Shown one piece after another: positions 15,873-22,368 of a stretch of 64,000 bases of DNA. Made by a program: the position numbers and the translations under genes. The stretch's first letter is position 1, and every line of letters starts with the position of its first letter. This DNA is from Escherichia coli. GTDB lineage: Bacteria; Pseudomonadota; Gammaproteobacteria; Enterobacterales; Enterobacteriaceae. Location: assembly GCF_016903815.1 (NCBI RefSeq), contig NZ_CP069973.1; one strand, written 5' to 3'. The notes beneath the pieces are model-generated. The model was not told the origin of the DNA, did not search any database, and was given only the letters and a program-made list of their open reading frames with translations.

Positions 15873-16892
15873 TTATCCTCTGAAACCAGGCGGAATTTCT
15901 GTATCCGGTTCAGAAATATGATTAACACAACGCTGTACAGGTGAACGCCCCAGGCGGATGACCAGTTCGTCCCATTTTTCGCGGAGCTTTGACGGGCTCA
16001 TGATGTTTTTTACCCAGAATGGATCCCGCTGTACCCGACCAAACATTTCACAAATTTGTCTGTGACTTCTGCCATCCAGCATCCGCATTGTGCGCACATC
16101 ATTGGCCCAGACAGTCCAGTTAGGCTCTTTTGGTCGCATGATCTCGCCATCATCACTGGCGGCCTGTTCGTAGAGACCCACGATCCGCCCCCATATCCAC
16201 TGCGCACACGCCAGATCCTCCTGGCTACCCCACTGGCGTTTTTTCGCACTAAACACAACTGCGCCAGGGTGCCGGATTAAAAAATCCTGTTCAGCCGTCT
16301 GCGGGTCCGGTTGCGAAGCTTCCGGACGAAAAGTGTTTTTATTCTCTGTAGTAATCTCTGTTGTATTCTCTGTAGGATCATCGGGCCATTTTGACCCGAT
16401 GACATTGGGTCGTTTTGAACCAATGGAGCGTTTCATTTTGACCTCTTCCATCGTGTCATTTTGACCTGATGGAGCGGCGCATTTTGAACCGATGGATTCG
16501 CTCAATTTGCCATCATCTAAAAGCTCGCTCCCATAGTTAATCGTGTAGAAATTGGTCATATCGCGCTTTGATTTATTGAGCTTTTCACAACGCAAAAGCC
16601 CCAGCGTTTTCAGACTTGCAAACGCGCGCTTTAACGTTGACTCTGACCAGAATGGGAACTGTTCCAGCCATTGTTCCGTTGTGTTGTAAATCCAGCGAAC
16701 ACCATCACATTCCATGCCGGAATTGGTATCTCTCAACCAGTAATGCAACTGCTGCAACACAATGGCTTCATTTAAGCCAATCTTCATCGCAAGCTGTGTG
16801 TTTATAACCAGTGGGCGTTCAGCAAAAAGAAGGCTCATAATTCCATCCAGCTTTTTGTTGGTATTGCTGTCGATACGCAAGCTTGAAAGCAA
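15873..16892 (-). CDS. Phage replication initiator (lambda O-like)
   Basis: 339-aa ORF with HTH-like N-terminal domain; central IGSK repeats encoded by DNA iterons; start codon uncertain. Confidence 0.65.
   Translation of the reverse strand: MLSSLRIDSNTNKKLDGIMSLLFAERPLVINTQLAMKIGLNEAIVLQQLHYWLRDTNSGMECDGVRWIYNTTEQWLEQFPFWSESTLKRAFASLKTLGLLRCEKLNKSKRDMTNFYTINYGSELLDDGKLSESIGSKCAAPSGQNDTMEEVKMKRSIGSKRPNVIGSKWPDDPTENTTEITTENKNTFRPEASQPDPQTAEQDFLIRHPGAVVFSAKKRQWGSQEDLACAQWIWGRIVGLYEQAASDDGEIMRPKEPNWTVWANDVRTMRMLDGRSHRQICEMFGRVQRDPFWVKNIMSPSKLREKWDELVIRLGRSPVQRCVNHISEPDTEIPPGFRG
16330..16520. repeat. Candidate phage origin: five to six iterons (consensus about CATTTTGACCYGATGG) plus adjacent ATTCTCTGTAG repeats, inside the O-like gene
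   Basis: Tandem near-repeats at roughly 20-24-bp spacing between 16385 and 16520, AT-rich repeats at 16340-16378. Confidence 0.6.
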
Positions 16893-17340
16893 TTGCTTTT
16901 TCTATAAGTTCGTCAGTTTCACGATCCACTACGGCAGGATCAGCAAAAAGCAGTCCGGACTCCACCACATCGCCATATTCTTTGTTTAACCCGGCGATCA
17001 TGCACGTGATGCTTTTTCCGTCAGTAATTTCACGATACAACCTGAAATCACTAATCCGGATAGCCTCCATAATCGCAGGCACTAGCGCCGTGAACTTTTC
17101 ACGCTTATCCCTGGTGTCGATAGCCTTCCAGCGTTCGAATATCTTCACTCGATTAACGCCAAGCGCTCGCTGATCAACCGCGCCACCTTCATCTGTGACA
17201 CGCTGAACATCGATGTTCGGGCGCTCTTTCAAAGCCCAGAATGCTTCAGTGATTAATATCGTCGCCTGCTCCTGTGTCATTCCTGGTCGACATATCCAGG
17301 CATCCAGAGCCTCACGAGCCTGTTCAGGAGTGATTTTCAT
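16819..17340 (-). CDS. Hypothetical early protein in the cII position (173 aa)
   Basis: ORF between the cro-like dicC and the O-like gene; function not recognisable. Confidence 0.45.
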   Translation of the reverse strand: MKITPEQAREALDAWICRPGMTQEQATILITEAFWALKERPNIDVQRVTDEGGAVDQRALGVNRVKIFERWKAIDTRDKREKFTALVPAIMEAIRISDFRLYREITDGKSITCMIAGLNKEYGDVVESGLLFADPAVVDRETDELIEKAIAFKLAYRQQYQQKAGWNYEPSFC

Positions 17341-17554
17341 TGTTCAACCGCCCCGCCCGCTTCGTCTTACGATATTCATCATAAACTTTGGGATCATACT
17401 GAAGCTCCCCGCCAGATGCCTCCTGTAGACGCATCGCGCGACCTTCAGGAACCAGTATCCCCCAAGCAGCAACACTTGCCAGCCTCACTCCTGCGGCATT
17501 GGCAAGCTTTGTTTTGCTGCCAAAAAAAGTAATTGCGTCAACTTTAAGCATCAA
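17324..17554 (-). CDS. dicC: Cro-like repressor DicC
   Basis: 76-aa ORF divergent from dicA; sequence recalled as DicC. Confidence 0.75.
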   Translation of the reverse strand: MMLKVDAITFFGSKTKLANAAGVRLASVAAWGILVPEGRAMRLQEASGGELQYDPKVYDEYRKTKRAGRLNNENHS

Positions 17555-17631: not shown

Positions 17632-18039
17632 ATGGATACAAGAACCCTGGGCCAGCGAGTTCTGGCGCGACGAAAAGAATTACGCTTAACACAACGAGAA
17701 GCCGCGCGCCTCGCTGGAGTTGCTCACGTCACAATTTCACAATGGGAAAGAGACGAAACCCAGCCAGTCGGAAAACGATTGTTTGCTTTAGCGGATGCTC
17801 TGAAGTGCTCACCTACATGGCTAATGTTTGGTGACGAAGACAAGGCACCAGTGCCTGCACAAGAACTTCATGTGGAAACAGAGCTAACTCCCAACCACAA
17901 AGAATTGATCGAATTATTCGATGCTCTTCCATCTTCCGAGCAGGAAGCCTTGCTGTCTGAAATGCGCGCAAGAGTAGAAAACTTCAACAAACTCTTCGAA
18001 GAAATGCTTAAAGCGCGTAAAAATAAATCAATAAAATAA
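17632..18039 (+). CDS. dicA: HTH-XRE repressor DicA
   Basis: 135 aa MDTRTLGQRVLARRKELRLTQREAARLAGVAHVTISQWERDETQP…. Confidence 0.9.
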   Translation: MDTRTLGQRVLARRKELRLTQREAARLAGVAHVTISQWERDETQPVGKRLFALADALKCSPTWLMFGDEDKAPVPAQELHVETELTPNHKELIELFDALPSSEQEALLSEMRARVENFNKLFEEMLKARKNKSIK

Positions 18040-18207: not shown

Positions 18208-18363
18208 ATGGATACTATCGATCTTGGCAACAACGAATCTCTGGTGTACGGCGTGTTTCCAAACCAGGACGGCACGTTCACCGCAATGACGTATACCAAA
18301 AGCAAAACGTTTAAAACCGAAAATGGTGCCCGTCGCTGGCTGGAAAGAAACTCAGGTGAGTGA
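18208..18363 (+). CDS. ydfA: YdfA-like small protein (51 aa)
   Basis: MDTIDLGNNESLVYGVFPNQDGTFTAMTYTKSKTFKTENGARRWLERNSGE within ORF 18154..18363. Confidence 0.75.
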   Translation: MDTIDLGNNESLVYGVFPNQDGTFTAMTYTKSKTFKTENGARRWLERNSGE

Positions 18364-18364
18364 T

Positions 18365-18940
18365 ATGGATTTCGACACAATCATGGAAAAGGCTTACGAA
18401 GAATACTTCGAAGGCCTTGCCGAAGGCGAAGAAGCTCTCAGCTTCAGTGAGTTTAAACAGGCACTCAGAATAAGAATGTGCTCTCACAATGACGCGGAGC
18501 ACAAATATGAGAAGCAAAATCAGACCGCAGAAAATTTTGTTCTGGAACCCGGAGAAACGCTTTTCAAAATTCCCGTTACGTGCCCCATTTGCGGTTTTAC
18601 ATCAGAAGAACTTGACGACTCCTGTAACAATCAGGAAACAACCAAGTATGTCGAAGATGATACCGAGTGCGCACGAAGAACGATTATATCCACGAGTCCA
18701 AACTCCAGGACCAATAAATCTCACTTTGAGAGGGTGATTAATCCACTCCCCCAAACCAATAAAAAAGATGCCGGAGGACAAAAAACCCAATGGAACAACG
18801 GGATATCTGTCAAAAAAAGACGTTCCATTAAAGACAAACAACGCAGCGCCAACAACTGTAAGCGCTTTATACCAGTAATCAATTTTCATGTTCTTAAGCG
18901 GATTTATTGGTGGTTGCGACATTGCTTAATGAATCCTTAA
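18365..18940 (+). CDS. YdfB/YdfC-region protein, continuous 191-aa ORF with CPICG motif
   Basis: ATG 2 nt after the ydfA stop; start of ORF 18323..18940 trimmed to MDFDTIMEKAYEEYFEG…. Confidence 0.45.
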   Translation: MDFDTIMEKAYEEYFEGLAEGEEALSFSEFKQALRIRMCSHNDAEHKYEKQNQTAENFVLEPGETLFKIPVTCPICGFTSEELDDSCNNQETTKYVEDDTECARRTIISTSPNSRTNKSHFERVINPLPQTNKKDAGGQKTQWNNGISVKKRRSIKDKQRSANNCKRFIPVINFHVLKRIYWWLRHCLMNP

Positions 18941-19199
18941 AACTGTGGTGATTTTAAGGATACCACCTCGCCTGACGTGGTTAAAAGCAGGCACACAACA
19001 CGAAAGCGCACGGCGAAGTTCGTCTCACTGTACGGTGTCGTTAAATTTAATTCGACCGTGCGCTTCCGGTTGTGGCAACCCGCGAAATGGCGCGGCGGTA
19101 AGTATGGCGGGGTTATTCCTTCCCCGTTGAGGACACCGAGTTGTCAGGTTGACCATACGCTTAAGTGACAACCCCGCTGCAACGCCCTCTGTTATCAAT

Positions 19200-19257
19200 T
19201 TTCTGGTGACGTTTGGCGGTATCAGTTTTACTCCGTGACTGCTCTGCCGCCGTTTTT
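19200..19257 (+). ncRNA. dicF: DicF small regulatory RNA
   Basis: TTTCTGGTGACGTTTGGCGGTATCAGTTTTACTCCGTGACTGCTCTGCCGCC followed by a T-tract, matching recalled DicF. Confidence 0.85.
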
Positions 19258-19426: not shown

Positions 19427-19615
19427 ATGAAAACGTTATTACCAAACGTTAATACGTCTGAAGGTTGTTTTGAAATTGGTGTCACTATCAGTAACCCTGT
19501 ATTTACTGAAGATGCCATTAACAAGAGAAAACAAGAACGGGAGCTATTAAATAAAATATGCATTGTTTCAATGCTGGCTCGTTTACGTCTGATGCCAAAA
19601 GGATGTGCACAATGA
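19427..19615 (+). CDS. dicB: Cell-division inhibitor DicB
   Basis: 62 aa MKTLLPNVNTSEGCFEIGVTISNPVFTEDAINKRKQERELLNKICIVSMLARLRLMPKGCAQ. Confidence 0.9.
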   Translation: MKTLLPNVNTSEGCFEIGVTISNPVFTEDAINKRKQERELLNKICIVSMLARLRLMPKGCAQ

Positions 19616-19896: not shown

Positions 19897-22368
19897 ATGA
19901 GTAAAGTCTTTATTTGCGCCGCTATTCCTGACGAACTGGCAACAAGGGAAGAAGGCGCTGTGGCTGTAGCCACAGCCATTGAAGCTGGCGACGAACGCCG
20001 TGCTCGAGCAAAATTTCACTGGCAATTCCTGGAACATTATCCGGCTGCTCAGGACTGCGTTTATAAATTTATTGTCTGCGAGGATAAACCTGGCATACCC
20101 CGCCCTGCCCTCGATTCATGGGATGCTGAATATATGCAGGAAAACCGCTGGGATGAGGAGTCTGCTTCTTTTGTCCCGGTTGAGACTGAATCCGATCCGA
20201 TGAACGTCACTTTTGACAAGCTGGCCCCTGAAGTACAGAACGCTGTCATGGTTAAGTTCGACACATGTGAAAACATCACCGTTGATATGGTTATTAGCGC
20301 ACAGGAATTGTTGCAGGAAGACATGGCAACATTCGACGGACATATCGTTGAAGCGTTGATGAAAATGCCAGAAGTTAACGCCATGTATCCGGAGCTTAAG
20401 TTGCACGCCATTGGGTGGGTTAAGCATAAATGTATTCCTGGTGCTAAATGGCCCGAAATTCAGGCAGAGATGCGCATCTGGAAAAAACGTCGCGAAGGTG
20501 AACGCAAGGAAACCGGAAAATACACGTCTGTTGTTGATCTCGCCCGCGCCAGAGCCAATCAACAGTACACTGAAAATTCAACAGGAAAAATCAGCCCGGT
20601 CATTGCTGCCATTCATCGCGAATACAAGCAGACATGGAAAACACTGGATGACGAACTGGCCTACGCTCTCTGGCCTGGTGATGTGGATGCCGGAAACATT
20701 GACGGCAGCATCCATCGCTGGGCAAAAAATGAAGTTATCGATAACGACCGCGAAGACTGGAAGCGTATCTCGGCATCAATGCGCAAACAGCCTGATGCCC
20801 TTCGCTACGACCGCCAAACTATTTTTGGCCTTGTCCGTGAACGTCCGATCGACATTCACAAAGATCCCGTAGCACTGAACAAATATATCTGCGAATACCT
20901 GACGACAAAGGGCGTGTTTGAGAATGAAGAAACAGACCTGGGCACTGTTGATGTTCTCCAGTCATCAGAAACACAAACTGATGCAGTGGAAACTGAGGTA
21001 TCTGATATCCCAAAAAATGAAACCGCGCCGGAAGCTGAACCATCTGTAGAGCGTGAGGGGCCGTTCTATTTCCTCTTCGCAGATAAGGACGGAGAAAAAT
21101 ACGGTCGCGCAAACAAACTTTCTGGTCTGGATAAGGCACTGGCTGCTGGCGCCACTGAAATCACAAAAGAAGAATATTTTGCCCGAAAAAATGGCACATA
21201 CACGGGCTTACCGCAAAATGTAGATACCGCTGAAGATTCAGAACAACCAGAGCCGATGAAAGTTACCGCTGACGAAGTAAACAACATTATGCAGGCAGCC
21301 AATATCATCCAGCCTGACGCCGATAAGTTGCTTGCTGCATCACGTGGTGAATTTGTTGAAGGGATTAGTGACCCGAATGATCCGAAATGGGTTAAGGGGA
21401 TCCAGACCCGCGATTCTGTGAACCAGAACCAGCATGAATCGGAACGGAACTACCAAAAAGCGGAACAAAACAGCCCAAATGCGTTACAAAACGAGCCAGA
21501 AACGAAACAGCCTGAATCAGTGGCGCAACAGGAAGTGGAAAAAGTCTGCACCGCCTGCGGTCAGACCGGCGGCGGCAACTGCCCTGATTGTGGCGCGGTA
21601 ATGGGCGACGCAACATACCAGGAAACATTCGATGAAGAGTATCAGGTTGAAGTTCAGGAAGATGATCCGGAGAAAATGGAAGGCGCTGAACATCCACACA
21701 AGGAGAACACTGGCGGCAATCAGCATCACGATAGCGATAATGAAACTGGCGAGACGGCAGATCACTCAATTAAGGTGAACGGTCATCACGAAATCACATC
21801 CACCAGCAGGACGTGTGACCATCTAATGATCGACCTTGAAACCATGGGAAAAAATCCTGATGCCCCGATCATCTCAATAGGTGCAATATTTTTCGATCCG
21901 CAAACCGGAGATATGGGACCGGAATTTAGTAAGACTATCGATCTGGAAACTGCTGGCGGAGTCATTGATCGGGACACCATTAAATGGTGGCTTAAGCAAT
22001 CACGCGAAGCGCAATCTGCCATTATGACCGATGAAATCCCGTTAGATGATGCACTGTTACAATTGCGGGAATTTATCGACGAAAACTCCGGTGAATTTTT
22101 TGTTCAGGTCTGGGGAAATGGAGCCAACTTCGACAACACGATTTTGCGCCGTTCATACGAACGGCAGGGGATCCCCTGCCCGTGGCGTTACTACAACGAT
22201 CGCGATGTACGCACAATCGTTGAGCTGGGGAAAGCCATAGACTTCGATGCCAGAACGGCTATTCAATTCGAAGGTGAGCGCCATAATGCACTTGATGACG
22301 CCCGTTACCAGGCAAAATACGTTTCAGTTATCTGGCAAAAACTGATCCCGAGTCAGGCTGATTCTTAA
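19897..22368 (+). CDS. ydfE: Large prophage protein (YdfE-like), 823 aa, with C-terminal DnaQ-like DEDDh 3'-5' exonuclease domain
   Basis: Exo motifs I (MIDLETMG), II ([12 protein letters not shown]) and III ([13 protein letters not shown]) in the last about 180 aa; acidic low-complexity linker; CxxC…CxxC around residues 550-560. Confidence 0.7.

Follow-up and report, generated by a model that had tools for sequence, protein, structure and literature searches.

What occupies the interval between ydfA and the small RNA DicF in an Escherichia coli prophage where one uninterrupted frame of 191 codons stands in place of the two small K-12 genes ydfB and ydfC? The prophage lies in a stretch of 64,000 nucleotides (nt) of contig NZ_CP069973.1 (assembly GCF_016903815.1), and we call that whole stretch the window; unless another locus is named, coordinates are positions in it. 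An earlier note on this DNA had suggested that ydfB and ydfC may be pieces of an ancestral gene or that this strain carries a fusion. We confirmed how that note described the 191-codon open reading frame (ORF). It runs unbroken on the plus strand from the ATG at 18365 to the stop at 18938-18940 (205 codons if counted from an upstream ATG at 18323), begins 1 nt past the ydfA stop, sits 5' of DicF and dicB, encodes CPICG at 18581..18595 (+), and has a basic C-terminal region, with a pI of 9.7 for the last 112 residues. The note overlooked the membrane-protein gene whose complement makes up this basic region. We found that, in this Qin/Rac-like prophage, ~18464..18995 (~530 bp) is a mobile two-gene cassette that has replaced the whole of ydfC together with the ydfB 3' end. 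The cassette likely combines a prophage membrane gene with an early plus-strand gene whose open frame is under selection, the latter being fused to ydfB in this strain. Our confidence is high for the anatomy of the gene pair and for the purging of stop codons and modest for the function that we assign to the pair.

On the minus strand, the cassette has a gene for a conserved inner-membrane protein of 106 aa and three helices, which is under purifying selection (Table 1). Its homologues include a protein of phage mEp390 (39% identity) and gp33 of Burkholderia phage Bcep176. A large protein collection contained relatives of 100-110 aa and 34-58% identity in Yersinia, Herminiimonas, Reinekea, and metagenomes, and a profile search placed 522 clusters in the family. 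Over 18 lineages, the pairwise differences at minus-frame codon positions 1, 2, and 3 were 0.42, 0.28, and 0.64 (0.09, 0.05, and 0.26 in the close clade only), which shows that purifying selection acts on the minus frame. The AlphaFold (AF2) model of the protein has three transmembrane helices and a beta-hairpin, with a predicted local distance difference test score (pLDDT) of 90.6.

The plus strand also codes for protein before it enters the membrane gene: the ~40 plus-strand codons just 3' of the membrane-gene stop are under purifying selection in the plus frame. They include a conserved motif region at 18542..18601 (+), LEPGETLFKIPVTCPICGFT in the window, with CPICG inside it. This region is kept among lineages with no more than 51-61% identity between their membrane proteins (loci are numbered with L), reading IEPGEIVFRIPTVCPVCGFS in L007, FVGEDICFIPTECPICGFV in L009, and INEEIFSIPIECPICGFR in Yersinia L012, and the differences, read in the plus frame, are synonymous third-position changes. 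We distinguished two classes of cassette. Class A carries the motif IPxxCPxCGF. In class B, which comprises mEp390 gp39, Pantoea, and many IMG/VR phages, FFERLE..PGSV......VTLxGW stands at the corresponding position. The plus-frame differences at codon positions 1, 2, and 3 before the overlap were 0.37, 0.29, and 0.53 in class A and 0.47, 0.36, and 0.66 in class B. An SD-like (Shine-Dalgarno-like) sequence and a start codon lie 32-42 codons 5' of the overlap, and the usual product is ~150 aa long. A protein search with the plus ORF returned near-identical copies only, and in Pfam, PHROGs, NCBIfam, and PADLOC the product matched only phrog_35040, phrog_2061 (with its YdfB part), and rubredoxin-like families below threshold, the best Pfam match being RUBY_RBDX (E = 0.13-0.005, below the cut-off). 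We considered a zinc ribbon or rubredoxin-like knuckle, for which we looked for two conserved CxxC pairs and a profile match, and rejected it: there is one CPxCG only, the Cys residues 3' of it vary (C>R in L006 and L008), and class B has VTLxGW there.

Codons 80-186 of the 191-codon ORF are the codon-aligned complement of the minus gene (18920 is a codon start in the plus frame). To ask whether the plus frame is kept open there, we used 80 IMG/VR loci gathered by membrane-protein search alone. Because the loci were found through the membrane protein only, there was no ascertainment on the plus frame. Together with loci fetched earlier, they gave 52 distinct coding sequences in ~17 lineages. 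The complement frame was free of stops over all ~106 codons in 14 of the 17 phage lineages, and in these the plus ORF ends 5-19 codons beyond the membrane-gene ATG. From the codon usage of the flanking genes, 2.6-6 stops would be expected in each lineage and the probability of none is 0.001-0.06, and only 9% of 106-codon windows in 72 neighboring phage genes were stop-free on the complement. The complement frame is open more often than chance allows.

Codon choice in the membrane gene shows the same effect. Pooled over the open lineages, Leu was encoded by CTT 73 times, TTG 45, CTC 43, CTG 32, TTA once, and CTA never. The stop-making TTA and CTA thus made up 1 of 194 Leu codons, and TCA made up none of 68 Ser codons; the lone TTA belongs to an N-terminal extension that was wrongly assigned in L003. 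Usage was normal for other A-ending codons (GGA, CCA, GCA, and ACA). All 19 conserved Leu/Ser columns showed synonymous turnover that never made use of TTA, CTA, or TCA. These three codons occurred at normal rates in most AT-rich or mid-GC chromosomal homologues and in the three phage lineages with a closed frame, L066 (8 stops), L087 (9 stops), and Bcep176 (3 stops). Chromosomal homologues in Herminiimonas, Reinekea, and two contigs from metagenome-assembled genomes (MAGs) or metagenomes had 5, 6, 14, and 17 stops in the complement frame, further AT-rich or mid-GC genomes had 1-12, and the complement of lambda sieB, our control, had 9. Most AT-rich or mid-GC chromosomal homologues had 3-17. 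GC-rich genomes were uninformative because the stop-making codons are rare in them. With high confidence, these comparisons indicate that stop codons have been purged by selection within the overlap and that the second frame is maintained.

What is maintained is openness and not sequence. Plus-frame identity within the overlap was 23.2%, compared with 23.3 ± 0.6% under a null in which the membrane proteins were fixed and synonymous codons were drawn at random (z = -0.1, at saturating divergence). The tail is hydrophilic, basic, and predicted to be disordered. We set aside the conservation of the 5-19 codons past the membrane-gene ATG (HFFRR...) as evidence of constraint, because the complementary SD and its A-rich spacer explain it.

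Several observations count against our interpretation. The tail shows no amino-acid constraint by identity or by BLOSUM score (z-score 0.33), and the AF2 model of the plus product is mostly disordered (pLDDT 54, with most of the tail below 50), its sole confident element being a C-terminal helix at residues 137-152. The close variants L041, L047, and L059 have a stop in the plus frame and an intact membrane gene. The L066 plus ORF stops 2 codons into the overlap; therefore, the tail is dispensable at least sometimes. A chromosomal locus in a Nitrosomonadales MAG (L108, GC 0.46) has no stops and an open complement of 154 codons without a class A or B motif, which may be chance or another class. 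On the side of the membrane gene, a strict sigma-70 scan found no consensus promoter. The 106-aa protein belongs to no Pfam, NCBIfam, PADLOC, or PHROG family, and class B homologues are likewise unmatched. No defense or exclusion family was matched; when this protein and a homologue from class B were compared with the SieB profile (Pfam PF14163), neither gave a match at E ≤ 1. Fold searches with the membrane protein were uninformative.

Natural variants in the overlap affect either gene. A85S (GCA>TCA) and F53L (TTT>TTA) in the membrane protein each place a stop in the plus frame (window positions 18670, 18675, and 18764; L047/L059 and L041). S83* breaks the membrane gene in three loci, as many as carry A85S. 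These variants look like low-frequency decay of either partner. The overlap also contains runs of six or seven A's (18745..18815), and the frameshifted plus-ORF variants P0064, P0067, P0076, and P0078 shift near such runs in a way that would disrupt both genes; decay or errors in sequencing may account for them.

Selection on openness rather than on sequence would also be expected if the plus frame were kept open so that ribosomes cover the early transcript and avert Rho-dependent termination before dicF/dicB or cII-O-P, the tail itself being irrelevant. In keeping with this idea, every plus ORF points the same way as the early operon, and 17 nt separate the end of the mEp390 ORF from cII. However, a sibling prophage in E. 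coli GN02050 (L101 1749..2219) has an antisense sieB in the same slot after ydfB, followed by kil and not by dicF/dicB, and all three complement frames of that sieB are closed by 6-12 stops, which leaves the 1169 nt between ydfB and kil untranslated. Moreover, ~490 nt of untranslated RNA follow the ORF in the window anyway, as do 230-480 nt in L009-L014, and the plus RNA has a C/G ratio of ~1 and so is not C-rich or G-poor. These observations weaken the anti-polarity idea, and we consider it unlikely.

Could the plus frame past about codon 80 be a chance shadow ORF, left open by an accident of codon usage, with only the minus gene real? The codon-aligned complement is the frame most often open by chance, and the disordered, unconstrained tail and the variants with plus-frame stops would be expected of such an ORF. 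However, 14 of 17 lineages are open at saturated synonymous sites against the 9% background, and it is specifically the three stop-making codons that are missing while other A-ending codons are in use. Among chromosomal homologues of similar GC, most have 3-12 stops, and the plus frame just 5' of the overlap is coding, with its own SD and start. We therefore regard a chance origin as quite improbable.

The suggestion that the 191-aa ORF is ancestral, with K-12 ydfB and ydfC its fragments through a frameshift or a stop, gains some credit from codons 1-34, which are identical to K-12 ydfB. We aligned the window with a K-12 derivative. Identity spanned ydfA and the first 33-34 codons of ydfB, to ~18463; the stretch from ~18464 to ~18995 could not be aligned; and homology came back weakly near 18995 and fully at ~19035, ahead of DicF. 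Because the alignment is identical, then impossible, then homologous again, the difference in the ydfB/ydfC region is a mosaic replacement, and the frameshift or stop differences for which the earlier note had proposed such an alignment are not there. The parts shared with K-12 Qin (ydfA, the first 34 ydfB codons, DicF, dicB, and ydfD) are near-identical. K-12 YdfC (72 aa, MQKREPVIIAPDYTDDELYEW...) found no similar sequence anywhere in the window by tblastn (best E = 3.3), and the ORF product diverges completely after FKQAL from YdfB, a 42-aa protein with the C-terminus ...FKQALSSSAKSNG, and reached no NCBIfam model. Thus, relatedness extends to codons 1-34 of ydfB, and ydfC is unrelated. Furthermore, the cassette occurs with its own start and without a YdfB part in L007, L014, L009, and L012, and in L007 and L008 it lies 5' of an intact ydfC, which the plus frame enters in frame to give a product of 271 aa. 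The alignment refutes the ancestral-gene explanation, which we consider highly improbable. The alternative of a fusion stands in part: the 5' end of ydfB does run in frame into another ORF, but its partner is the unrelated cassette and not ydfC. Because the joint is in frame, translation from the ydfB ATG, which is coupled to ydfA and has GGTGAG as an SD-like sequence, runs into the plus ORF of the cassette and yields the 191-aa fusion.

That the minus ORF is an artefact and the plus ORF the sole gene, as in the annotation of phage HannyBb and in some RefSeq annotation, is refuted and scarcely conceivable, even though gene callers favor the longer plus ORF and that ORF is phrog_35040, because the third minus-frame position is the most variable in the overlap (0.64 versus 0.42 and 0.28), chromosomal minus-frame homologues exist where the plus frame is full of stops, and the minus product gives a confident membrane-protein model.

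We return to the reading of a cassette with two genuine genes and ask how the pair might work. The plus stop and the SD of the membrane gene lie within one hairpin (Table 1), which folds in the window with dG = -10.1 and z = -3.8. The same architecture folds in seven class A lineages, with a conserved outer stem (TATCC/GGATA) and compensating changes in the inner stem. The adjoining conserved block 5' of the membrane gene contains TGnTATCnT, which could be an extended -10 element or the anti-SD arm of the hairpin. We also considered a type I toxin-antitoxin system, in which a small membrane toxin would have an mRNA with a sequestered SD and be countered by an overlapping antisense transcript. 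The SD of the membrane gene lies in the conserved hairpin, and the opposite strand is an early-operon transcript; however, the membrane protein, with 106 aa and three transmembrane helices, is larger than known type I toxins. By position only, the membrane gene is a SieB-like moron in the window and at 10+ loci.

Our model for the pair is as follows. The membrane gene would be expressed from the prophage as an exclusion- or defense-type moron; expression from the prophage is most likely because the gene is opposed to the early operon, beside the immunity region, and in the slot of sieB. The hairpin would hold its ribosome-binding site and restrain its translation. The plus gene would be made only when the early operon fires, in the lytic phase, and plus-strand transcription and translation across the cassette would then silence the membrane gene in the way that sas RNA acts on sieB in P22. 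Selection would preserve a full-length plus product composed of a small N-terminal hairpin or Cys-knuckle, a long hydrophilic tail of indifferent sequence, and the C-terminal helix. We tentatively suggest that the nested antisense pair may act as a toggle between lysogeny and the lytic phase, built of exactly complementary codons, in which the lytic frame is kept translatable whatever its sequence. If this suggestion is right, the selected trait would be either a disordered tail whose sequence does not matter or the passage of ribosomes and RNA polymerase over the membrane gene, and the pair would rank with the clearest comparative examples of a long antisense overlap that bacterial viruses have maintained.

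How does the pair compare with known systems? K-12 Qin has the same operon frame, ydfA-ydfB-ydfC-dicF-dicB, and the window differs from it by ~530 bp of unrelated cassette with a minus-strand gene. In lambda, P22, and Rac-type prophages, sieB is likewise a membrane gene antisense in the early-left operon beside the immunity region; in lambda it lies on the strand opposite N and ral. The cassette and sieB are unrelated in sequence, and stops abound in the complement frames of sieB, whereas in the cassette the complement is a maintained ORF. In the P22 sieB system, Esc is named along with the sas antisense RNA. That antisense RNA controls P22 sieB (PMC12197685). The nearest experimentally studied analogue is the olg1/gene 10 pair of Pseudomonas phage Fc02, in which a small gene by the repressor, expressed in lysogens, is overlapped antisense by the second early lytic gene and the products of both exclude superinfecting phages (PMC9936078). 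The second early gene of Fc02 follows a cro/ner analogue, and class B cassettes are alike, with cro and then the plus ORF. However, Fc02 belongs to another phage group (B3-like transposable phages), homology to its genes would not be expected, no stop-purging comparison is reported for it, and the pair in the window is known from sequence alone.

Long antisense shadow ORFs have been reported in Pseudomonas aeruginosa and enterohemorrhagic E. coli (PMC8850804, PMC9927249). They too are long ORFs embedded antisense in a coding gene, with evidence of selection. However, those embedded ORFs are young and taxonomically restricted, whereas the cassette pair spans lineages with membrane proteins only 39-50% identical, and in the cassette the longer ORF is the passive partner, with selection on openness only. 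Long antisense overlapping genes are disputed because most of the evidence comes from single genomes. The pair described here gives independent comparative evidence from ~15 diverged lineages, with natural negative controls in the chromosomal homologues and the three closed-frame phage lineages. In practical terms, synonymous Leu/Ser changes in the membrane gene can truncate the plus product and leave the membrane protein unchanged. A search of the literature found no paper on the gene pair or on the membrane-protein family. The gene pair is an under-annotated, conserved antisense pair of a rare, contested kind, and its membrane family of 522 clusters, which has no name in Pfam, NCBIfam, PHROGs, or PADLOC, occupies a slot that known exclusion genes use, in ~15% of complete E. 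coli genomes.

This last figure comes from 795 of 5426 complete E. coli genomes in which the region was found. In E. coli strain 7/2, which has a 100%-identical stretch, the Prokaryotic Genome Annotation Pipeline annotates only a 34-codon ydfB missing its C-terminus (a pseudogene) and then nothing before dicB, and the records of HannyBb and mEp390 annotate the plus ORF alone. Current annotation either misses one of the two genes or puts it on the wrong strand. The mEp390 record (L003, NC_019721) has gp39 at 2956..3411 on the cro strand, with a GenBank note of similarity to Bcep176 gp33. The homologue of that Bcep176 protein, however, is the protein encoded on the strand opposite gp39 (L003 + 2992..3315), and the note belongs to the unannotated membrane gene.

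At all phage loci, the cassette adjoins the repressor/cro genes; its plus ORF is read in the direction of the early operon, and its membrane gene against that direction. In class A loci, including L006-L008 and L014, the plus ORF is the first gene past the leader, and these four loci use a ydfA-type ribosome-binding site; in L006..L008 (the loci with P0066, P0069, and P0070), the cassette plus ORF re-uses the ydfA leader and ribosome-binding sequence GTTAAGGGGAAATGAGGTCAGCATG. The window has the dicBF operon of Qin-like prophages, in which DicF and then dicB lie 3' of a dicA-type repressor and ydfA. Table 1 lists the features of this region.

Table 1. Features of the ydfA-dicB interval and the cassette within it
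Feature	Position	Strand	Evidence or remark
ydfA (DUF1391, 51 aa)	18208..18363	+	Pfam PF07151, E = 1.7e-28; WP_000379575.1 in identical genome
191-codon ORF	18365..18940	+	Full-length match to phrog_35040; hypothetical protein WP_000344958.1 or ydfB pseudogene in RefSeq
YdfB-derived N-terminus, 34 codons	18365..18466	+	tblastn, 100% identity to YdfB residues 1-34; phrog_2061 match over residues 1-34
Left mosaic joint	18464..18475		K-12 identity stops, 12 nt 5' of internal ATG 18476
Cassette plus-gene N-terminal region	18476..18601	+	Probable own start, ATG 18476, with weak SD
Plus-ORF tail	18602..18937	+	Complements the whole membrane gene codon for codon, then runs 5 codons further
Gene for 106-aa three-helix membrane protein (MSQPPINPLKNMKIDYWYK...GLGEWINHP...)	18602..18922	-	Homologues, codon pattern, AF2 model
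Hairpin over plus stop (18938-18940) and membrane-gene SD AAGGA (18934-18938)	18931..18964		10-bp perfect inverted repeat
Block 100% conserved between window and L006-L008, 5' of membrane gene	18958..18993	-	Candidate promoter region; contains TGnTATCnT
DicF small RNA	19201..19252	+	Rfam RF00039, 72.5 bits, E = 4.5e-15; gathering score 48
dicB (62 aa)	19427..19615	+	WP_000854559.1 annotated in identical genome

A DicA-like repressor is encoded at 17632..18039, and we found no N-like antiterminator between the repressor and the early-left genes of the window. The neighboring prophage genes (15873..17554 and 19897..22368) encode replication O-like, YdaT-family, and Cro/DicC-like proteins and an 823-aa YdfE-type exonuclease. 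In L006..L008, inserted ParE/PaaA2 or HigB/helix-turn-helix toxin-antitoxin pairs separate the repressor from the cassette. An IMG/VR phage (L067 2127..2312) carries a CsrA-like ORF of 61 aa beside the cassette in its early-left operon.
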